Source of the DNA: a virus
DNA: 64,000 bases
Direction: 5' to 3' (one strand)
IMG/VR virus record: IMGVR_UViG_3300036828_000568
Location: 11,159-75,158 of that record
Every line of letters begins with the position of its first letter. Position 1 is the first letter of the stretch. The position numbers and the translations under genes were made by a program. The notes below the pieces were generated by a model that made no database searches, was not told where the DNA came from, and saw only the letters and a program-made list of their open reading frames with translations. Of the stretch, positions 3,505 to 59,768 are shown piece by piece.

Positions 3505-3533
3505 ATTATACTTTACACGAATAAGGAACACAA
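3505..3533 (-). promoter_or_regulatory. sigma70-type promoter (GTAAAG-adjacent class)
   Basis: minus strand TTGTGT-N17-TATAAT. Confidence 0.7.
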
Positions 3534-4080: not shown

Positions 4081-4357
4081 AAACCTCTACCTCCGGCGGG
4101 CGTTCTTCTAGCATCTTTTTGTACTCGGGCATGTGCTGGATAGCTATGGCATTCAAGCCAGACCCTACCACTATCTGCATTCCACAGCTACGGCACTCGT
4201 ACAGGTCGGCTTGCCAGAGTTTATAGGATTCCCATTCAGAAGCAAATAGTTTCCCTGGGATTGCTCTTGGCTTCTTAGGCTTCATCTCCTGTACGCGAAT
4301 GCCGCATCGCGCCGGTTTGAAGAATGTGCCACATGAAACGCAGATAGGTTTCAGCAC
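4070..4357 (-). CDS. Zn-ribbon hypothetical protein
   Basis: CVSC...CRSC; GGAGG RBS. Confidence 0.65.
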   Translation of the reverse strand: MLKPICVSCGTFFKPARCGIRVQEMKPKKPRAIPGKLFASEWESYKLWQADLYECRSCGMQIVVGSGLNAIAIQHMPEYKKMLEERPPEVEVYDC

Positions 4358-5154
4358 GCCCTCCTCCTTCTGATATAGCGCCAGAACGCGAACGCGCCAA
4401 GCAAACCCGGTAATCCGGTGCCGACTATCGGACCTGGGACCGGGACTTGCTGATTTACCGGCGTAGTCATAATCAGCCCACCTACATCGCCCTGTGCAAA
4501 CGGAGGGTGCGTTCCACCAGTGAATGCGAACACCTCTGTAATCTTGAACTGTTGGCCTGGAAGCATGGCACTCAGTGTTATATCATCGATCCGCAGGCCA
4601 TTGCTGAACTGGTCCTGGCCCGCGAATGATGATGTACCTCCCACAAATGGTCCGCAGAATGGATTGGGTGTATTGCAGACTAGGACCTGGGTAGTCACTG
4701 TGTAGCCAGGAGTGCCTACTGCCGGGGTTTCGATCGTGCCCCATTTCGTAGGTAGCGTAATCATGGGGTTGCCCGTCAACGTGCCGGTCCACGAGGCGTA
4801 GAGGTACGCTGTCCCACCTTGGGGCGGAGCAAACCCATCGTTAAAGGTAAACTCGAATGTTGGGTTCGGACCTCCTAGACCGCCGCTGAACGTGTTGCCC
4901 CCTGGAGGGATAACTCCAGCAAAAATTTGGTCGAACCCGAAACCAGTGGGACCAGTTGGTAAAATCGGATTGCCGATAATCTGCACGTTTGGGGCTATGC
5001 CTCCAGGCGTCACAGTCCCGGTGTTGGTGCCGAGGATTGCAATACCAGTCATGCCAGCGCCAGGATCGAAGTAACCAACAGTCACAGTGTCAGCATTTGC
5101 TGCCAGAGGGCTGAGCAGCATGGTCGTAGCTAGTAACACAGAACGCATTTTCAT
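4351..5154 (-). CDS. secreted PEP-CTERM-like (VPGP..GxGLPG) surface protein
   Basis: signal peptide MKMRSVLLATTMLLSPLAANA; C-terminal VPVPGPIVGTGLPGLL-TM-RRRR; start re-assigned using the RBS and promoter. Confidence 0.8.
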   Translation of the reverse strand: MKMRSVLLATTMLLSPLAANADTVTVGYFDPGAGMTGIAILGTNTGTVTPGGIAPNVQIIGNPILPTGPTGFGFDQIFAGVIPPGGNTFSGGLGGPNPTFEFTFNDGFAPPQGGTAYLYASWTGTLTGNPMITLPTKWGTIETPAVGTPGYTVTTQVLVCNTPNPFCGPFVGGTSSFAGQDQFSNGLRIDDITLSAMLPGQQFKITEVFAFTGGTHPPFAQGDVGGLIMTTPVNQQVPVPGPIVGTGLPGLLGAFAFWRYIRRRRAC

Positions 5155-5191
5155 CGTGGGGTTCCTTTTCCTTTGCCCCCATGCCTTTTGC

Positions 5192-5220
5192 ATTTTACTT
5201 TACGGAAGTTAGGGATGCAA
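5192..5220 (-). promoter_or_regulatory. sigma70-type promoter (GTAAAG-adjacent class)
   Basis: minus strand TTGCAT-N17-TAAAAT. Confidence 0.65.
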
Positions 5221-5866: not shown

Positions 5867-6541
5867 TTACGCTACAGCTTCACGTCGATACCACCATGCG
5901 AAACGCTTCTGGCGGAAACGAGCAAAGCCGAGCAACAGAAGACCGACTAGTCCCGGCAACCCTGCTCCAACGATTGGGCCAGGAACCGGAGCCGCAACAT
6001 CAACGCGATAATGCTCGAAGTCGGTGATAGTGCCACCGGTATCGCTTATCGTGAAGCTGTTGATGGTTTCGCCGTTGATGGCAGTCAACGTGAAGAAGTT
6101 TTGCCCCGGCCCGAGTGGGCCGAAGAGTGAGAGCAGGTCGAAGTTGACCGGCTTGGTTCCACCACCTGGCTCGTTCGCGGTCACGGCCACTGTCACGTCG
6201 CCGGTACCTGTGATTGAGAAGATGTCGGTGGCGGTGGGTAGCACCGTTGTCTTGTCTGCGGCAAAGACCTGCACACTCATACTGCCAAAGTCGTTGATCT
6301 TGATATCATTGCCTGAAGCTGCTCCGGTGAAACCAGTGCAGGTAACTAGGCAAGTGAAATCAACGAACCCTGTATGCTGGCCGTTGAAGCTGCCGACGAC
6401 AAGATTGCTACCGGCGACATGGCTGTCGAAGTTAACGAGATCACCTGTACTACCACCTGTGTCAGTGATGATCACGTCCGCCTTTGCAGGCATAACGGCG
6501 AGTCCCAAAAGCATGGTCCCCGCCAACAGATACTTTTTCAT
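5867..6541 (-). CDS. secreted PEP-CTERM-like (VPGP..GAGLPG) surface protein
   Basis: signal peptide MKKYLLAGTMLLGLAVMPAKA; C-terminal APVPGPIVGAGLPGLVGLLLLGFARFRQKR; AAGGA RBS. Confidence 0.85.
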   Translation of the reverse strand: MKKYLLAGTMLLGLAVMPAKADVIITDTGGSTGDLVNFDSHVAGSNLVVGSFNGQHTGFVDFTCLVTCTGFTGAASGNDIKINDFGSMSVQVFAADKTTVLPTATDIFSITGTGDVTVAVTANEPGGGTKPVNFDLLSLFGPLGPGQNFFTLTAINGETINSFTISDTGGTITDFEHYRVDVAAPVPGPIVGAGLPGLVGLLLLGFARFRQKRFAWWYRREAVA

Positions 6542-6649
6542 GTGCTAATGTCCTTTCGGTTGTTGCACATTACTGTTGGGGAAAGGTGATACTCGGTTTT
6601 TGTTATTTCATACACGACCCTCCTTCTTGGTTGTGTTCGACAACCTCCG

Positions 6650-6676
6650 AAAACCCGGTATCGTTGTACCGGGCTG
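6650..6676 (-). terminator. intrinsic terminator downstream of the tandem array
   Basis: minus strand AGCCCGGTA-CAACGA-TACCGGG-TTTT. Confidence 0.6.
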
Positions 6677-6744
6677 TAAAGCATTATTGCAGCATGATTT
6701 GCCGAACACAAGGCGTATTTTTTGTACAGAAAACTCGCGCGTCG

Positions 6745-7702
6745 TGGTACTTTCTTGTAGTATGGTTCGCTCACTTGCTGTGGTACACTCTTAGGTCGCC
6801 TGGCTCGCTCACGTCACAATGGTACTCTCGCCACTTTTGGCTCACTCCCGTTCTATGGTACTCTCCATATAGTTGGTTCGCTCTTCACCTATGGTACACT
6901 TGCTTCCGTTGGCTCGCTCTCCTGGTATGGTACTCTCCAGGTGATTGGCTCGCTCTTCTTCTATGGTACATTCTGCATTCTTGGCTCACTCACGTTTTAT
7001 GGTACTCTCCGTTGGGATGGCTCACTCGTACAGGATGGTACACTCAGTCAGGATGGCTCGCTCACTTTGTTTGGTACTCTCTGTCAATATGGCTCGCTTC
7101 ATTCGTATGGTACATTCGTGCGTCATGGCTCGCTTACACTTTATGGTACTCTTCAGGCTGTTGGCTCACTCCGCGGGTTTGGTACTCTTTGGTCTTGTGG
7201 CTCGCTTCCGTTCAATGATACACTCGACCAGGATGGCTCGCTCACCTCATATGGTACTCTAACCAGTTATGGCTCGCTCTTCGACGATGGTACACTCCCA
7301 ATACGTGGCTCGCTCTCATGATATGGTACTCTTCGAAGACATGGCTCGCTCTTGTGGGCTGGTACACTCGGTCGGGGTGGCTCGCTTCCTATGGTACACT
7401 CTATGAACATGGCTCGCTCAAGTTTCCTGGTACTCTTCCCCGCGCAGGTTCGCTCACCATTTATGGTACTCTTTCCCATAGTGGCTCACTCTTCTCGTAT
7501 GGTACACTCTGGCATGTTGGTTCGCTCGCAGTCTATGGTACTCTCTGCATGGGTGGCTCGCTTTCATCATATGGTACACTCAGGTGGGGTGGCTCGCTCT
7601 GTCTTATTGGTACACTCGACGCTTATGGCTCGCTCACGCACTATGGTACTCTCGTGTCGATTTGGCTCGCTCTCTGACTCTGGTACACTCACGCTTACTG
7701 GC
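6745..7702 (-). ncRNA. TIGR-like dual-repeat guide array (about 26-27 units of 36 nt)
   Basis: plus strand alternates TGGTACWCTY (27 copies, 6745..7681) and TGGYTCRCTY (26 copies plus a degenerate one at 7699) at 18-bp spacing with unique 8-9 nt spacers; abuts the stop codon of a Nop-domain gene. Confidence 0.9.
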
Positions 7703-8518
7703 TTACCAAGTTCCCCACTCGGGCGGTGGTTCGATCTTATCGATGTGCCCGAGGTGGGTTATTGGGAAAGGTTGTGGAGCATCTTTCCCAAACTCTAGCT
7801 TGTACCACACCTGATGCAAGTGGGACAAGAATATCTTAGTAGCGTACCGACGACTACGAGCATCTATCTGTGCAGGAGGCAATTTACCTGTAAGAAGATG
7901 CTTGCGTGTTTCCGTAGGTTTCTTATAGCGTGGCAAGAGTTCCCTAGCAGTCTGTGCGTTGCCGCCGTTTTCGTTGCGCTTGATTTCATATTCCTTGCGC
8001 ACCTCATAGATCTTGCCGTAATAGCATTTGTCGTTGTTGTGGAATTTCATAAAGCATTGACCGATATGCCAGCACAATGTCTTAAGACCAGCATTCCAAG
8101 GGCGCTTTTCACCCTCGCCCCATTTGTCTGTGGGATCCAACCCGGCAAAGCGCCAGATATGCCCGGTGGAGGGGCAGACTTTGATGTCGATATGGGCGAT
8201 TAATCCGGCTGATATTACTGGCCCAATCCCAAAAATGTTCTTCATACGACGGCCAATTTCTTTGCTGTCGCTATACCGGTCAAGCGCACTACGGAGGTTG
8301 CGTTCCAGTACATCGCTCTGTACTGCCAACCAGTTCAGGATTTCGTGTGGTTCTACCACTTCTTCAGTGGTCATAGACCGGATTTGGTTATCCGACCGTT
8401 TGCGCATTTCCTGCATGATGTAATAGCTATCAACAAGGAAGCGTGCTTCCCTATCTGATAGTGTTACCGCCGCTGTCCGTAAATCACGGGACAGTCGTTC
8501 TACAGATTCTATGTCCAT
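7703..8518 (-). CDS. tasA: TIGR-associated Nop-domain RNA-binding protein, TasA-like (no RuvC or HNH domain)
   Basis: coiled-coil N-terminus, then GIGPVISAGLIAHID...GHIWRFAGLDP...WNAGLKT (IS110 C-terminal/Nop-like); AGGAG RBS favours the start at 8518 (track start 8524). Confidence 0.8.
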   Translation of the reverse strand: MDIESVERLSRDLRTAAVTLSDREARFLVDSYYIMQEMRKRSDNQIRSMTTEEVVEPHEILNWLAVQSDVLERNLRSALDRYSDSKEIGRRMKNIFGIGPVISAGLIAHIDIKVCPSTGHIWRFAGLDPTDKWGEGEKRPWNAGLKTLCWHIGQCFMKFHNNDKCYYGKIYEVRKEYEIKRNENGGNAQTARELLPRYKKPTETRKHLLTGKLPPAQIDARSRRYATKIFLSHLHQVWYKLEFGKDAPQPFPITHLGHIDKIEPPPEWGTW

Positions 8519-8805
8519 TACCATTCTCCTTTCATTGGAACATATACTCCATTACGCTCTACTAATTGAACCGGGTTCATACCCGGTCCGACACTACGTT
8601 CTGCGCACGCCCGCACGCGCGGGGGTCGTTTTACCCATAATTTCCGACCAATGAACGTGCCTAGCTGGATTGTTAACACGCATATCCAAAACAGGCCCAC
8701 TATGATTTGAGCTGCTAATTGAATTAGTAGCCCGATCAATATCAGGGTTTCGCGCGCTAGTAGAACTAGCAGCACTCCCAGTATAAAAAAGAACACCAAG
8801 GTCAT
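8518..8805 (-). CDS. small membrane protein coupled to the tasA-like gene
   Basis: long hydrophobic N-terminal half; TAATG stop/start overlap. Confidence 0.6.
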   Translation of the reverse strand: MTLVFFFILGVLLVLLARETLILIGLLIQLAAQIIVGLFWICVLTIQLGTFIGRKLWVKRPPRVRACAERSVGPGMNPVQLVERNGVYVPMKGEW

Positions 8806-9020
8806 AGTATCACCTATTCGGTGCCCCCACTTTCGCAGGGGGCTCGCGGCTTAGTCAGAATCCTTTCAGGTATCTCCACTGCCACAGGAACTGTCCCACT
8901 ATGGGGGCACCACGACAGGGCCTTACTGAAATCATAGGCGGACATTCCCTAAACTGCCGGAGTTACTATAACCGCGACCACCGGCTGCGCGGTGCTCTTA
9001 TCGAACTTAACCATGCCCTA

Positions 9021-9049
9021 ATTATACTTTACAGAAACAAGGAAAGCAA
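9021..9049 (-). promoter_or_regulatory. sigma70-type promoter for the membrane protein/tasA/array unit
   Basis: minus strand TTGCTT-N17-TATAAT. Confidence 0.75.
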
Positions 9050-9198
9050 TGCTCTTGTTTTATTTTGTTTTTCCGATTATTTCGTTCAGTTCTGCTAGGG
9101 TTTTGTCTGGAGAACTAACGACTGCACTGATTTTGCATTTTCCTGGGAATCGTATATCAAAATCCTTTATATGTTCTAACCATGATTGGATCAATTCA

Positions 9199-9363
9199 TC
9201 AGGAAGTTCTGTTATCGTCAGGATCTTCAACTTCTGCCTCCACTTTTCCTGTGCCCTCACAATGAGTGCATGGTGTAATGTCTGTAATGATAAAATTATG
9301 GGAAGTGTCCATTGTTATTACTTCACCTTCACCCTTGCAACATGGACATGTGACCTTTGGCAT
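9199..9363 (-). CDS. small DnaJ-type Zn-finger protein
   Basis: CPCCKGEG...CTHCEGTG; TAATG overlap with the upstream ORF. Confidence 0.6.
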   Translation of the reverse strand: MPKVTCPCCKGEGEVITMDTSHNFIITDITPCTHCEGTGKVEAEVEDPDDNRTS

Positions 9364-9545
9364 TATCGTCCTCCCTTCAGATGTATACTGTGATACCATT
9401 CTAATTTTGAAACAGTATCACGATAGCTCTTGTTTCCTGGAATTCCAGACAAGATTTTTAATAGCCGGTTGATTTGCATATCGGTAATACCGACCGCTCG
9501 AAATGCTTCATACATCTGTAGTGCAGTGTCATCTGATACAACCAT
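9363..9545 (-). CDS. hypothetical protein
   Basis: AGGAGG RBS; 60 aa. Confidence 0.6.
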   Translation of the reverse strand: MVVSDDTALQMYEAFRAVGITDMQINRLLKILSGIPGNKSYRDTVSKLEWYHSIHLKGGR

Positions 9546-54445: not shown

Positions 54446-54975
54446 TAGATGCTGCTCCCTCTATTTCTGAGCCATTGGTTAACGTTCATGGACATGCATG
54501 ATTCACTCGCTAGACGTTGAGCTTCGTACATTGTATCTCTCATTATAGCTTCTGCGTACTTGTTACCTAGATTCATTTCATGTTCACCAGTTTCATGCAT
54601 CTCCAGCAAATCACATATTTTTACTTGGATTCTTTCTTCTTTAGTTAGTTCTGGAAGCCGGAGTTCAAGTTGTCGTAAGCCAATAGCTTCACCCTTTTCC
54701 ATTCCTTCTTTTAGCTCAGGAATTTGTTTCTTAATGCTATAGGGAACATCTCCCGCCCATAGTTCACCACTATCATGATGCAGGCAATAATAGAGTACTT
54801 CTGCACGAGGAAGTCCAAACACTTCTGTGAATATACAAGCGACGCGCCAGCAATGATGTCCGACCGTCTGCTCCTTTATCATAGGCCAAGTATGATATCG
54901 CTTGACACATCCAGCTAAGTATCGAGAACTATAGATATTGTGGCGGTCAATCACGACATCCTCCTTCTTATCCAC
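54445..54975 (-). CDS. HD-domain 5'-deoxynucleotidase (YfbR-like)
   Basis: VKRYH...TVGHH...LHHD..E...GDVP...K.CD.LE. Confidence 0.85.
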   Translation of the reverse strand: MDKKEDVVIDRHNIYSSRYLAGCVKRYHTWPMIKEQTVGHHCWRVACIFTEVFGLPRAEVLYYCLHHDSGELWAGDVPYSIKKQIPELKEGMEKGEAIGLRQLELRLPELTKEERIQVKICDLLEMHETGEHEMNLGNKYAEAIMRDTMYEAQRLASESCMSMNVNQWLRNRGSSI

Positions 54976-55955
54976 TCAGTACCAGCCTTCCGCCAGTCTT
55001 CTGCAATAACTTCTTCTATCTTTTCTAAAGCCCCACCTATATCTTTTTTCTTATATAGATAATGCGCCTCAGCCATAGGTAGAACAACCTGTGCTAAAAA
55101 TGGATTAGTGATATTTCCGCTATAAGCTTCTTCGTCCTTGTGTATGTCTTCTATCCATTGCATAGTTTCTTCCAATTCATTGTCAAACGATTCAGGATAT
55201 TTAATAAGAGGCTGTGTTCCTTCATAATCCCATCCATTCTTTAAAGCCACATATAAATTTCCTGTTGATCCAATTCGCTTCTGTAACATCGCCAGATGTT
55301 CTGTATAAAAATGTAGGTTAGTTGATATCTGCCAATATCGACCTACTTCAACCCCTACCATGCTCGCTATATATTCCTGCATCATTGGGAAATGAACTGC
55401 GTTGGCACCACAGCATCCCCATATTAAATCATTAGACCGATTAAACACAGTCATGTCTAATTTCTTAGCATTGTTTAGAATACGAAATGTAGCTACAAGA
55501 TTACAGGGTTTGATAATACTCGGTGTCACTAAATCACCATCCCACATTTGAAGTACAGCTTGCCGGGTAGAAGGGTTTCTTTTCAACTGCTTAATGATTT
55601 CACGCAGTTGATCGTATCCTAACTGAGTTCTCCACCTATGCCCGTATGCATCTGGGATTATACCATGTTCATCCCCATAGTTTTTACTGAAATCTTTGAT
55701 ATAATAGTCCAGAAATTCCCCATCATTTCTACCTGCAAGCATCCACATAGCTTCCATTAAATGAAAGAAGGGATTCGCATCTCTTACTTCATTTACTAGA
55801 ACATGCTGTTTAGGATACTCATAGCGAATACTAACTGGTGATGGACTAACCCAAGCATCACCATTCCTGGTCTTTTCTTTATTACCAGAATGTAAAACGT
55901 GTCGAACTGCTTTCGGAAGTGCATCCCTCACGTTAGCCGCATTTATCATATACAT
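54951..55955 (-). CDS. thymidylate synthase homolog, probable dUMP hydroxymethyltransferase
   Basis: ANPFFH, AYG.RWR, RQAV, PCN, RSND..WG..GAN (Asn at the dUMP-specificity position), NLH.Y. Confidence 0.85.
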   Translation of the reverse strand: MYMINAANVRDALPKAVRHVLHSGNKEKTRNGDAWVSPSPVSIRYEYPKQHVLVNEVRDANPFFHLMEAMWMLAGRNDGEFLDYYIKDFSKNYGDEHGIIPDAYGHRWRTQLGYDQLREIIKQLKRNPSTRQAVLQMWDGDLVTPSIIKPCNLVATFRILNNAKKLDMTVFNRSNDLIWGCCGANAVHFPMMQEYIASMVGVEVGRYWQISTNLHFYTEHLAMLQKRIGSTGNLYVALKNGWDYEGTQPLIKYPESFDNELEETMQWIEDIHKDEEAYSGNITNPFLAQVVLPMAEAHYLYKKKDIGGALEKIEEVIAEDWRKAGTEWIRRRMS

Positions 55956-56625
55956 GTGTTTCTCCCCCTTCCAATACGATGCGTGCACCACTCAACTTTA
56001 CATCACGTGGAGTTCCCCAGTCTATTGGGGTATAGAGTGTTTGCTGAGCTTCTTTTTCACATATCATAAGATCAAACACATGGCTCAAATAAGGTTCTGA
56101 ATATCCTTCACACACCTCCCCTAAAATAGTCATAAACTGTGGGACTGCATCAGGAGCCACGAAGTAAGCACCTCGCACAGCATATTCAGATATCCGTTCC
56201 TTTTCTTTAATACGTGAAAAATTGTGAAGCTTATCAACATAGGAAAAGGCCGGATTAGCACTTCGACTTACCAGCACTCCAATACCGGTACGAAGTTCTG
56301 TTAATAACGAAAGATCATTGGTAGAATTGAGTATATCAGAATCCATTATTAAACATGACTGAGGGCCTATGGATTCTAAAACCTTCTTGGTAGTTTCTGC
56401 GGGACCCTTTGTATCAACAATTTGAACCCATCCTCGACTACACTTATATCGAGGAGGAACTGCTGCAACTACATGTATCAATTCCCAAGGAACTGTATGA
56501 ACTACATGTTCAATCATTGGCATAGTTGTGCCTTGCCACATGATATCAATAAACGGTTTGGGAGTCATGTATCCATCTTCCCGAAACCTCTTGCTCTGTC
56601 CAGCCGCTAGGATAATCACATGCAT
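55933..56625 (-). CDS. nucleotidyltransferase (NTP-transferase family)
   Basis: IILAAGQSKRF...PKPFI; D.DI; KEK; DWGTP. Confidence 0.8.
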   Translation of the reverse strand: MHVIILAAGQSKRFREDGYMTPKPFIDIMWQGTTMPMIEHVVHTVPWELIHVVAAVPPRYKCSRGWVQIVDTKGPAETTKKVLESIGPQSCLIMDSDILNSTNDLSLLTELRTGIGVLVSRSANPAFSYVDKLHNFSRIKEKERISEYAVRGAYFVAPDAVPQFMTILGEVCEGYSEPYLSHVFDLMICEKEAQQTLYTPIDWGTPRDVKLSGARIVLEGGETHVYDKCG

Positions 56626-57292
56626 TTTCTAACTCCTTGCTTACCCTGGTTGCCCATTGGGTCGCGCTGTCAAAGATATCCCTTTTAGCGATTCGTTGTA
56701 AAGCGACCATTGCCCAGAAGACTGCTCTTCTTGCAGTATCATAGTCCTGCATAAAATTAGGCCATTCATATGATATCTTTTCATGACCACGTAGTACGAC
56801 TTCCCACCCAAGAAAAGACTGAAGCATTTTACCATGATCTACTGCCACTATGCTCGGTTTCCTTAGCCATAGTTTTGGGATAGGGTCAATTAACCTCATG
56901 AACCCATCCTTTGTTATCATTACATTATCCAGTGTTGGGTCCCCATGTATTAAGGAACGGCTCCATACATGCTGTTCCAAAAATCTTTCTAACACTAATA
57001 AGGAATCAAAATTATGCTCAATAGGATACAAATACTCCATGCAATAAGCACCGTCGTATACCATAAGGATCTTTGGACAAACGTGTTCCCCCAAATATCC
57101 CATGAACCGGGCTTGATCCTCGGCATATCCTGGTGGGCGCATTCTTTTGAAGACAGCCACACAGATTTCTGCATCACTATACCCATGCATTTCTGTTGCG
57201 AAATGGGGCGTAGGAACGTAGTCTGCCTTGTATTTTAGCGAAATCTCAGCTAACTGCCGTAGCTTCGATTTGAGCTCGGTAGCGTCGGCCAT
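56546..57292 (-). CDS. APH/choline-kinase-like phosphotransferase
   Basis: HGDPTLDNV, LIDP, D.GK.LQS. Confidence 0.8.
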   Translation of the reverse strand: MADATELKSKLRQLAEISLKYKADYVPTPHFATEMHGYSDAEICVAVFKRMRPPGYAEDQARFMGYLGEHVCPKILMVYDGAYCMEYLYPIEHNFDSLLVLERFLEQHVWSRSLIHGDPTLDNVMITKDGFMRLIDPIPKLWLRKPSIVAVDHGKMLQSFLGWEVVLRGHEKISYEWPNFMQDYDTARRAVFWAMVALQRIAKRDIFDSATQWATRVSKELENACDYPSGWTEQEVSGRWIHDSQTVY

Positions 57293-58058
57293 CCTCTAGT
57301 GCCTTCTGCCACTGAACTATCACCTCTACCCTTGGCGTACTCGCCTTATACGCACGTTCTACAGTAGAAACATAGCTTGGAAATAGTTCCTTCAGTTTAT
57401 GAGCTTCAGCATTTGAAATTTCTACTGTGCGTTCAAAACTAGTTCCACCCGGTTTATCATATCCACGCTGGTCCACGACCGTTGTGTGATACACCGCATT
57501 AGGATAACCCTTCACCAATAACTGCAACGCCAATTCCATATCTTCCCGCAGCGCAATTCGCCGGAAAACGCATTCCTTTATGACCACCGGTAGATAGTAT
57601 CCTAGAGCATAGCACATCTTACCGGGTGATTTCCAGCCGACTTCTTCTAGCTGGTTATTTCCTTGCCGCTGACCAAATCCTGCATGTGGTGTTTCTGGGC
57701 TAAGTCTTTCAGCAATACGTTCGAACTCTGGTATTAATTCTTCGCCTTTTATTTCCCGTAAGTGCCAATCTGTTTCACTAATACGGGTGGCAAACCGCAA
57801 GTCATCATCTAACATAATGATCTTTTCTTCCCCACGCCTATGAAATTCCTCTAATATCCAGGCACGTTTATCACCAATTTTCATATCTGGATCAGGTTGT
57901 GGGATGTATTCTGGCACGCCAGAAACATATTGAGCTGATAATTTAAAGATTTCTTTCTTTGGGGCGACAATGGTAGTTTGTTCCCTCAGTACCTTCGGCA
58001 ACATGCTGAGGGTTAACTGCTGGTCTGTACGACCGCGAGTTGGTATTACTATCCGCAT
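57246..58058 (-). CDS. GT-A fold glycosyltransferase (TET-associated/GREB1-like)
   Basis: IVIPTRGR, MLDDDL, EDMEL.LQLL..G, PGG.S. Confidence 0.75.
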   Translation of the reverse strand: MRIVIPTRGRTDQQLTLSMLPKVLREQTTIVAPKKEIFKLSAQYVSGVPEYIPQPDPDMKIGDKRAWILEEFHRRGEEKIIMLDDDLRFATRISETDWHLREIKGEELIPEFERIAERLSPETPHAGFGQRQGNNQLEEVGWKSPGKMCYALGYYLPVVIKECVFRRIALREDMELALQLLVKGYPNAVYHTTVVDQRGYDKPGGTSFERTVEISNAEAHKLKELFPSYVSTVERAYKASTPRVEVIVQWQKALEDGRRYRAQIEATAVS

Positions 58059-58120
58059 TTTAAGTGGCCTCTATGTTTACCCTAACATGGTGGAATTCAC
58101 TTTACAAGTTCAAAGGCAGT

Positions 58121-58867
58121 CTACCCACAGTCTATACCACCTTGACGCATTGCTTCCTTCCATTTATACTTAACATGACGTGGCCCTGGATCTACAATGC
58201 CTCCCCAATATTGCTTGAGTAAATTGTGAGCCTCATCAAGGACCTGTTGATTGCGCCAATCACTGCAACCTCCGGGGCGGTCGGACTTACTCATCTTACT
58301 AAATTCTGTACTGACAGCGGTTTTTATCCCCCGTGTGAGAAATTGTAGATGCACATCGTGCTCTTCATCATGTGGCACACGAAAAGCAGGCCATGGATCT
58401 GGGAATAAATCCCGATTGTATCCGTGGATATCATTAAACCGAGTACATTCTTTGAATTCCCTAGGGGTAAGATGGCTCCATGCCTTATCTACCAGACCTA
58501 CCATGGGGTATCTGTCTAGTAGATCGAACATGGCCCCGATCATACGTTCTGTGGCTTCTATTTCGTATGGCTGAATACGGGCAAATTTTGAATCTGATAG
58601 ACGTTGGTAGAAGGCAAGGTCATCATCTATCATAATTACCTTACCGGTATTTCGCATGTGTAGAATAAACTGTCGGGTGGGACCAATACCATATGCATCA
58701 CATGGTGTGATATGAACATCCGGAAAAGCTTCTTGGTACAATTCTACTTGTTCAGGTGGAACTACAAGTGTCACGTAATGCCATAGCCGTCTAGAAAGAT
58801 TCATAAGCGACTTTTGCTTGTAGTGCCTGGACCGGGAAGGAATCACAATCTGTAGATCACCGAACAT
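58121..58867 (-). CDS. second GT-A fold glycosyltransferase paralog
   Basis: IVIPSRSR, MIDDDL, EEHDV.LQFL..G, PGGCS..R; start re-assigned using the GGAGG RBS. Confidence 0.75.
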   Translation of the reverse strand: MFGDLQIVIPSRSRHYKQKSLMNLSRRLWHYVTLVVPPEQVELYQEAFPDVHITPCDAYGIGPTRQFILHMRNTGKVIMIDDDLAFYQRLSDSKFARIQPYEIEATERMIGAMFDLLDRYPMVGLVDKAWSHLTPREFKECTRFNDIHGYNRDLFPDPWPAFRVPHDEEHDVHLQFLTRGIKTAVSTEFSKMSKSDRPGGCSDWRNQQVLDEAHNLLKQYWGGIVDPGPRHVKYKWKEAMRQGGIDCG

Positions 58868-59768
58868 TTGGCCCTCCATGTTTGAACGTTTGTCGGGGGC
58901 GACCCCATCCATTGGCTGTCTTCGTATACTTACTCCATTCACAAAGACAGTTTTGTAGGTCTTGGTTGTGCAGGCGTTCCATTCCCATGCTATTCAGCTT
59001 TGGGTTTATCCGATTGCTCAATAGCGTAAGTTCTTGCAGCCATTGACCCTTCGGCCATGGTTCCTCCATAGGACGTTCTAATACAATGTTCAAACCGCGC
59101 ATACTTCCCGGTCCAGGAGTAGCCCAAGACCACCAATCTTTTGCTTCTTGCATGAATGGTAGATACTTGAGGTCTGCTACAAGCTGTCCAGTCATAAAGC
59201 TTCCCAGACCCTCATTCTGTAACCATTCAAACATTTCACATAGCAATGGAGAATGCGTTTGCCATGCTTCAAACGTCCTTCGCCAGCTCTTTTGAACACA
59301 CCATTGATGAATGTAGTGGCAGACGCCTTCTCCTTTAGGAAACCCTGGCTTCCCGGTGATGATAAAGGAACCGGTTACATGAGGAGTGGGAAGTTTTAGT
59401 ATAAGATCTGTTAGTATAGTAACATCATTGTGATTAATATACTTTTCAAATACAGATTCGTTATCAAGCAGAGGTTCATTAAAAAGAGCATCACAAGTGC
59501 TAATACGATTAAACCAACGATAGGCCACCGTCGCAGGAAATACGATAGCATCCTCGGTATATCTGTTACGGATAGATCGCTGATAATGTTTGGATACAGC
59601 ATCGTCTTCCCTATGTACATTTGTGAACCTATATTCTTGTAGAATAGGGTCTTTAGTCCATGGCGGTGGGTCACTTCTTTCAAACCTGCGAAACCGTATG
59701 GTTTCGCGTTCGAATATAAAAGCCACGAATCTGTCTATGGGGTCATTGATTTCTGTGATGTGTACCAT
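58857..59768 (-). CDS. 5-hmdU DNA kinase-like protein (aGPT-Pplase1 family)
   Basis: ERE.IR..R...PPWTKDPIL..YRFTNV.REDD; G.FM..Q.VADL; GPGS.RGL; QN.LCE.SKY. Confidence 0.8.
   Translation of the reverse strand: MVHITEINDPIDRFVAFIFERETIRFRRFERSDPPPWTKDPILQEYRFTNVHREDDAVSKHYQRSIRNRYTEDAIVFPATVAYRWFNRISTCDALFNEPLLDNESVFEKYINHNDVTILTDLILKLPTPHVTGSFIITGKPGFPKGEGVCHYIHQWCVQKSWRRTFEAWQTHSPLLCEMFEWLQNEGLGSFMTGQLVADLKYLPFMQEAKDWWSWATPGPGSMRGLNIVLERPMEEPWPKGQWLQELTLLSNRINPKLNSMGMERLHNQDLQNCLCEWSKYTKTANGWGRPRQTFKHGGPNVR

Follow-up and report, generated by a model that had tools for sequence, protein, structure and literature searches.

The window analysed here, a stretch of 64,000 nucleotides of one strand, is part of a 75,158-bp virus record in IMG/VR (IMGVR_UViG_3300036828_000568) that comes from soil and is rated 97% complete. 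On the minus strand it encodes a 271-aa protein that we assign to TasA, the solo-Nop effector of TIGR-Tas systems, together with a long array of putative guides. The features of the locus are as follows (coordinates are those of the window, and residues are numbered as in the listed open reading frame, P0001):

9021..9049, minus strand: promoter-like TTGCTT-N17-TATAAT, with GTAAAG directly 5' of the -10 box, ahead of the unit (putative function)
8518..8805, minus strand: 95-aa hydrophobic ORF, the stop of which overlaps the tasA ATG
7703..8518, minus strand: tasA, coding for 271 aa from the likely start (span includes the stop codon)
8267..8455, minus strand: coiled-coil hairpin (residues 24-86; AlphaFold2 helices 24-53 and 61-86), the predicted dimer interface
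7709..8260, minus strand: Nop-type RNA-binding domain (residues 89-272), which includes a GIGPV helix-hairpin-helix and aligns with the Nop domains of TasH and TasR
8093..8149, minus strand: FAGLDPT...RPWN loop (residues 126-144), by alignment the equivalent of the IS621 S241 loop, without Ser-Gly
7874..7969, minus strand: basic segment (residues 186-217) of two short helices and a GKLPP turn, confidently modelled
7745..7768, minus strand: C-terminal loop F253...H260, which by alignment matches the Y289/H296 dyad with which SpTasH processes pre-tigRNA
6745..7690, minus strand: dual-repeat TIGR array of 26 units of 36 nt, with 27 edge repeats (AGWGTACCA) alternating with 26 loop repeats (AGYGARCCA)
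6648..6675, minus strand: terminator-like hairpin (9-bp stem, 6-nt loop, UUUU), about 70 nt past the last repeat

The listed ORF that covers tasA runs from 7703 to 8524 (minus strand, 273 aa, P0001), and its third codon, at 8518, is an ATG. We consider 8518 to be the better start because this ATG has an AAGGAG Shine-Dalgarno sequence 7 nt upstream, overlaps the TAA stop of the 95-aa ORF (TAATG, with one A in common) and is also the start of the database copy of the protein (271 aa, P0002). The span of 7703-8518 given in the original prediction is thus a better gene model than the listed 7703..8524, and both peptides quoted there were located in the translation (FAGLDPTDKWGEGEKRPWN at residues 126-144 and NGGNAQ...GKLPP at residues 186-217, P0001 numbering). 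No Pfam or PADLOC match was obtained for the 95-aa ORF, which is absent from all 123 related loci examined; it may be specific to this phage, or may be no gene at all. Four ORFs on the plus strand within 6586-7798 (210, 126, 119 and 148 aa, with periodic peptides of WYS/WLA type) are artefacts of the 18-nt periodicity of the array and are not to be annotated as genes.

The array begins 13 bases past the tasA stop codon, directly downstream of the gene. Its repeats keep a strict 18-nt phase, and each unit contains two spacers, mostly of 9 nt; the five exceptions measure 5 nt (one spacer), 10 nt (three) and 11 nt (one). There are 39 matches to the pattern AGNGNNCCA-N9-AGNGNNCCA, against 0.00 expected, and all fall within the array. 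The GTACCA repeat is taken as the edge repeat because the array both starts and stops with it, following the definition of Faure et al. (PMC12045711). Both repeats end in CCA, which is "box C" of the same authors (PMC12045711), and begin with AG at the "box D" position. The 5-nt spacer is a spacer A (TAGGA) in one unit at 7383-7400 (minus strand). Of the 23 regular units, 17 have a spacer A that begins with TA, and almost every spacer has a purine as its last base.

The unit has a simple order: promoter-like site, leader, 95-aa ORF, tasA, array and hairpin. The window contains three copies of TTGYNT-N11-GTAAAG-YANAAT, all on the minus strand, against 0.03 expected; the motif could represent a promoter class specific to this phage. 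Its copies are at 3505-3533, 5192-5220 and 9021-9049, the first two upstream of other leftward genes. The terminator-like hairpin has a predicted fold of -16.3 kcal/mol (z -2.5) and was missed by a consensus terminator scan because its T run consists of four T only; it was picked out by visual inspection. There was no match to Rfam at 6000-9500, nor to PADLOC.

The protein scores 185.9 bits (cut-off 100) over residues 27-240 against the NCBIfam model NF052498, "TIGR-Tas system RNA-guided endonuclease", which has 215 positions and covers the Nop core only. The NCBIfam model for IS110 (NF033542) gives 25 bits against a cut-off of 140. In Pfam the only match, to the IS110 C-terminal domain PF02371, is borderline and partial (21.4 bits; residues 93-135, covering profile positions 3-46 of 87), and among the PHROGs the protein falls into PHROG 4285, labelled "transposase" (6.5e-40). 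When a profile of 30 sequences, in which G99, G101 and P102 are invariant, was compared with solved chains, TaTasR (9mty) was matched at an E-value of 8e-29, SpTasH at 6e-18 and IS621 at 5e-7.

The AlphaFold2 model (pLDDT 88.7, pTM 0.86) is all-helical, without a beta strand. It has helices at residues 5-19, 24-53 and 61-86, in agreement with the helical coiled-coil N-terminus described in the original prediction, and a helical domain that follows the hairpin formed by 24-53 and 61-86. Foldseek ranks TasH and TasR at the top for this model, with ISCro4 and IS621 next. In VIA-align comparisons, TasH gives a Z of 20.4 (rmsd 3.4, 234 aligned residues, model 21-272 against TasH 65-309), TasR 18.2 (rmsd 2.7, 195 aligned, model 23-272 against TasR 110-322) and IS621 13.6 (model 21-271 against IS621 125-317); archaeal Nop5 (1nt2_B) gives 7.1 and aligns from Nop5 residue 82 only. 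The homology to TasR and TasH in profile and fold, the match to NF052498 and the adjoining array support the predicted identity of the protein as a programmable DNA binder of the TasA type.

A homodimer was predicted with a score of 0.59, compared with 0.00 for the best of three controls, a result that may reflect likeness to solved Tas dimers. Between runs, at least 67% of contacts agree, the pLDDT of the partner is at least 81, and the interface residues (11-80) are those of the coiled coil. Of 30 proteins solved as pairs of one chain, 20 reach the mark used; of 23 solved as single chains, 1 does. Because the dimers of TasR and TasH are already solved, we read the pass as likeness and not as independent proof.

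Lacking from TasA are the N-terminal domains that carry the DNA nuclease centres of its relatives. The HNH domain of TasH, the RuvC domain of TasR and the DEDD domain of IS621 have no counterpart in the structural alignments, since only about 20 residues precede the coiled coil, and without a single beta strand the model leaves no basis for a RuvC or HNH fold. A Pfam profile search, in which a nuclease domain would have refuted the original prediction, likewise found no nuclease family. The claim that DEDD/RuvC and HNH motifs are missing is therefore borne out by profile search, structural alignment and the all-alpha model. The recombinase residues of IS110 enzymes are missing as well. In IS621 the catalytic S241 (with G242) is located in a Tnp-domain loop and makes the phosphoserine link to DNA (PMC11208158). 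Our alignment with IS621 stops at R239 (FAGLTPR), opposite T132 of TasA (FAGLDPT), after which comes D-K-W; S241-G242 would match K134-W135. No serine is present in residues 129-146 of TasA, and in 271 relatives the conserved residues after FAGLDPT are W135, R141, P142 and N144, not Ser-Gly. The absence of Ser-Gly after the GLxP motif, as originally described, agrees with both the alignment and the composition of the loop.

Public names for this protein are misleading: Pfam calls the family "Transposase IS116/IS110/IS902", PHROG 4285 is a "transposase" and the NCBIfam model is an "RNA-guided endonuclease". Because TasA has no DNA nuclease or recombinase site, the labels "transposase" and "endonuclease" are wrong here, and in public models they are misnomers for such proteins in general.

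The C-terminal loop of the Nop domain leads to a different conclusion for RNA. SpTasH cuts its own precursor RNA without metal by means of Y289 and H296 in this loop (PMC13421893), and its H268 is also required for processing. In the profile alignment H296 corresponds to H260, Y289 to F253 and H268 to H235. H260 is kept in 270 of 271 relatives; at position 253 the same 271 sequences have Tyr in 210 cases, Phe in 52 (19%) and Trp in 8. According to a 2026 preprint, dual-repeat systems conserve the Tyr/His dyad and stem-loop systems lack it (10.64898/2026.09.09.750476), and TaTasR, with Trp at the position of the dyad Tyr, still has precise 36-nt guides (PMC12045711). With Phe in place of Tyr at 253, the efficiency or chemistry of guide processing may differ, and self-processing of guides by TasA is not assured. 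The original heading, that the effector has no nuclease or recombinase centre, therefore holds for DNA; for RNA it does not, the processing site being partly kept (H260 is present and Tyr is replaced by F253). As judged from the alignments, TasA has no DNA nuclease or recombinase centre yet retains most of an RNA-processing centre, and since the guide-processing loop is present in dual-repeat TasA proteins, "catalytically empty" is an unfit description of them.

The basic segment precedes the last long helix (residues 217-245), the position originally assigned to it. It is conserved in the family (N184, G187, A193, G213, L215 and P216 at 90% or more), and its start aligns near K233 of SpTasH, a residue that is needed for pre-tigRNA processing and lies close to the ends of the guide (PMC13421893). 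We infer that the segment may have a role in holding the edge repeat.

Relatives of TasA are numerous. We obtained 4491 matches among proteins of similar length and 1248 clusters (50% identity) below 1e-30, and there are at least 537 related loci in IMG/VR. A length of 265-290 aa is the norm among them. Of the 80 best related viral loci, 72 have an array with a 36-nt period next to the gene, and the arrays of relatives share the A-x-x-G-x-x-x-C-A repeat shape with different sequences. In two sister phages, whose large terminases are 84% identical, tasA is at the same place; one of them (L024) has the same two repeat sequences and the other (L002) a close version. Further copies of tasA are present in genomes and metagenome bins from many bacterial phyla. 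Among 50,697 GenBank phage records the sole match is Salicola phage CGphi29 (TasH), and therefore no cultured relative is available. None of 12 neighbour proteins is conserved beside tasA in 123 related loci, save the terminase genes of the two sister phages. The conserved module is the gene and its array, and nothing else.

A close variant of the unit comes from a second soil study. Its tasA differs at 10 positions, all 10 of them synonymous, and the gene is under purifying selection. The array of the variant has three substitutions in about 950 nt and the same 26 units, none gained or lost. Two of these substitutions fall in repeats, each producing a repeat variant that other units of the array already show, and the third is in a spacer; over the distance to this variant the array changes no faster than the gene.

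Some relatives are much longer. We considered that these might be nuclease fusions and rejected the idea, as neither RuvC nor HNH was detected in 10 long representatives, of which four have an intein and six have no additional Pfam domain. Inteins are indicated in the four (P0141, P0147, P0151 and P0221; 689-783 aa, outside the window) by Pfam LAGLIDADG matches together with Hint-type matches, the latter in three of the four (P0141 has LAGLIDADG only). In P0221, the only one aligned, the intein is placed exactly before the conserved Cys of LKTL-C-W (Cys151 in the phage TasA), inside the Nop domain. The word "intein" is absent from the 2026 TIGR diversity preprint.

TasA was named in 2025 as the solo-Nop effector that is commonest in TIGR systems, with a proposed role in blocking transcription or replication (PMC12045711). 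The modes of action put forward in the original prediction (repression, blocking of replication, recruitment of a partner) had already been discussed by Faure et al. in 2025 (PMC12045711). FpTasA of Flavonifractor plautii binds processed 36-nt tigRNAs (PMC12045711). MbTasA binds target DNA tightly without cutting it and reversibly represses reporters and the chromosomal cysG (10.64898/2026.09.09.750476), and in the solved ternary structure of PlTasA with its target, the target is unwound and both spacers pair with opposite strands (10.64898/2026.08.11.744272). MbTasA and PlTasA are stem-loop types; for dual-repeat TasA, guide binding only has been demonstrated, not repression.

The phage protein shares with FpTasA and other dual-repeat TasA proteins the solo coiled coil and Nop domain, the lack of a nuclease, the adjoining dual-repeat 36-nt array and carriage by a mobile element. 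It differs from them in sequence, in the number of units (26, versus the usual 5-15), in the Phe at the dyad Tyr and in residing in a soil phage. MbTasA and PlTasA, like it, have no nuclease, and both are dimeric RNA-guided DNA binders, but their guides are stem-loop units and they belong to clades without the Tyr/His dyad, whereas the phage TasA is of the dual-repeat kind with the loop and its His kept. SpTasH of Salicola phage CGphi29 (9w03, 9w04, 21kl) is the best structural match and is also phage-borne with a dual-repeat array; it cuts DNA and starts with an HNH domain (about residues 1-64), whereas in the phage TasA about 20 residues precede the coiled coil and the basic segment is about 13 residues longer than in SpTasH. 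TaTasR (9mty), the best sequence match among solved structures, also has both repeats ending in the box C CCA. Unlike the phage TasA, it has an N-terminal RuvC domain (about residues 1-109) and cleaves both strands, and it lacks the stretch 186-222, which takes in the basic segment; box D is UG in TaTasR and AG in the phage array, and the dyad position is Trp in TaTasR. The recombinases IS621 and ISCro4 of the IS110 family (8wt6, 9t56) resemble the phage protein in the coiled coil with a Tnp/Nop-like helical domain, the GIGP helix-hairpin-helix, FAGL.P and the two-part guide RNA. They possess a DEDD RuvC domain and the S241-G242 loop, both lacking in the phage TasA, the guides of which form an array; no transposon ends were seen.

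The gene is very probably a TasA, the solo coiled-coil and Nop effector of a dual-repeat TIGR-Tas system in a soil phage of about 75 kb, and one that binds and blocks its targets without cutting them. We propose that a single transcript would start from the promoter-like site at 9049 and continue through the small ORF, tasA and the array, ending at the hairpin near 6650. TasA is predicted to form a dimer via its coiled coil and, by homology, would bind the AG...CCA (box D and box C) ends of each repeat. The precursor may then be cut within the edge repeats, with the help of TasA, into 26 guides of 36 nt, a step in which His260 of the C-terminal loop would be expected to share, with Phe in the place of its partner Tyr. 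In each guide, the two spacers of about 9 nt would pair with opposite strands of an 18-bp DNA site, as in characterised relatives. Having no DNA nuclease or recombinase residues, the complex would bind and bend the site without cutting it and, if it behaves like MbTasA and PlTasA, would block transcription, and perhaps replication, of a gene of the host or of a rival element.

An arrangement in which TasA is a targeting module only, with a separate nuclease, helicase or other effector of phage or host recruited to destroy or remodel the target, seems unlikely to us. Some TasA loci are in operons with ParB-like genes (Faure et al., PMC12045711), the 95-aa ORF is translationally coupled to tasA, and the family-conserved basic segment at 186-217 has no assigned role. 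However, none of the 12 neighbour proteins recurs beside tasA in the 123 related loci (the terminases of the two sister phages excepted), neither ParB nor fibrillarin was identified in the 97%-complete phage record, the 95-aa ORF belongs to no Pfam or PADLOC family, and MbTasA alone is sufficient for repression in E. coli (10.64898/2026.09.09.750476). With no conserved neighbour gene, the earlier suggestion of partner recruitment is unsupported. A second reading draws on the Nop domain that the protein shares with Nop5 (1nt2_B, Z 7.1), on the box C/D-like AG...CCA ends of the repeats and on the His that relatives use for RNA cleavage: the unit would then be a particle like those of archaeal box C/D systems, the guides pairing with RNA and directing its modification or cleavage, rather than DNA binding. 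We regard this as highly improbable. The absence of a fibrillarin gene from the phage counts against it, as does the absence from TasA of the N-terminal fibrillarin-binding domain of Nop5 (the alignment starts at Nop5 residue 82), and all characterised Tas proteins target double-stranded DNA (PMC12045711, 10.64898/2026.08.11.744272).

The family label "transposase" in Pfam and PHROGs and the fold match to IS621 (Z 13.6) would also suit a decayed protein, no longer functional, that descends from a bridge recombinase of IS110 type or from a TasR or TasH nuclease and has lost its catalytic domain. This explanation is close to refuted. The score against the IS110 NCBIfam model is far below its cut-off (25 bits against 140), the 265-290 aa form is normal in thousands of relatives (the 4491 matches and 1248 clusters given above), all 10 differences from the second variant are synonymous, and the array is intact, with an identical number of units in the variant.

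We regard the phage TasA as an ordinary member of a known family and a putative DNA binder; its interpretation matches the literature and is not new. What the locus provides is a clean annotation of a dual-repeat TIGR-TasA unit that is complete, under selection and equipped with 26 guides, in a phage genome that is itself nearly complete. The boundaries of the unit are clear (promoter-like site, coupled small ORF, gene, array and terminator-like hairpin), and there is no integrase, ParB or other partner. A compact 271-aa dual-repeat TasA with many natural guides is also a reasonable test case for repression.

The phage encodes a large terminase, a portal protein, a DNA polymerase, helicases, a primase, a thymidylate-synthase-like enzyme and two glucosyltransferase-like proteins, and genes for a Tyr or Ser integrase were not identified in the 97%-complete record. 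From this gene content and the lack of an integrase, the phage looks virulent, and probably is, and it probably modifies its DNA. The suggestion in the literature that TasA helps a phage integrase does not fit a record of this completeness without either type of integrase. The thymidylate-synthase-like gene (PHROG 5131, 4e-95) adjoins two genes similar to beta-glucosyl-HMC-alpha-glucosyltransferase (PHROG 842) at 54951-58942 of the window (minus strand), and the group is probably a DNA hypermodification module in this TasA-bearing phage.

The spacers do not point to the phage itself. A search of its own 75-kb contig with the 26 spacer pairs, in both possible geometries, with gaps of 0-2 and with the array masked, gave no target at 0-1 mismatches, two at 2 mismatches and 30 at 3; shuffled spacers in the same search gave 0, 0.05, 2.15 and 33 at 0, 1, 2 and 3 mismatches, which is the same level. 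No targets at two or fewer mismatches were found in 699 kb of related loci, and no spacers were common to related loci beyond a few chance 16-mers. For an exact 18-mer, several chance matches are expected in collections of 100 Gb or more, which makes such collections a poor source of targets.

A broader idea, which we offer tentatively and hold to be unlikely, is that this soil phage, virulent, equipped with replication genes of its own and probably hypermodifying its DNA, would use the 26-guide TasA during infection as a multiplex, non-destructive silencer of genes of the host or of rival phages, from which the phage's own DNA would be exempt through its modification and the split guides. The Phe-for-Tyr exchange, found in about one-fifth of relatives, might then mark a sub-group that matures its guides by another chemistry or with a host RNase.

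Directly downstream of the array are genes for two secreted proteins, at 4351-5193 and 5867-6541 (minus strand). They have no match in PHROGs or Pfam and were not found in related loci. Both end in a C-terminal tail of the form VPGPIVG.GLPGL, a hydrophobic stretch and RRR, which resembles a PEP-CTERM-like sorting signal.
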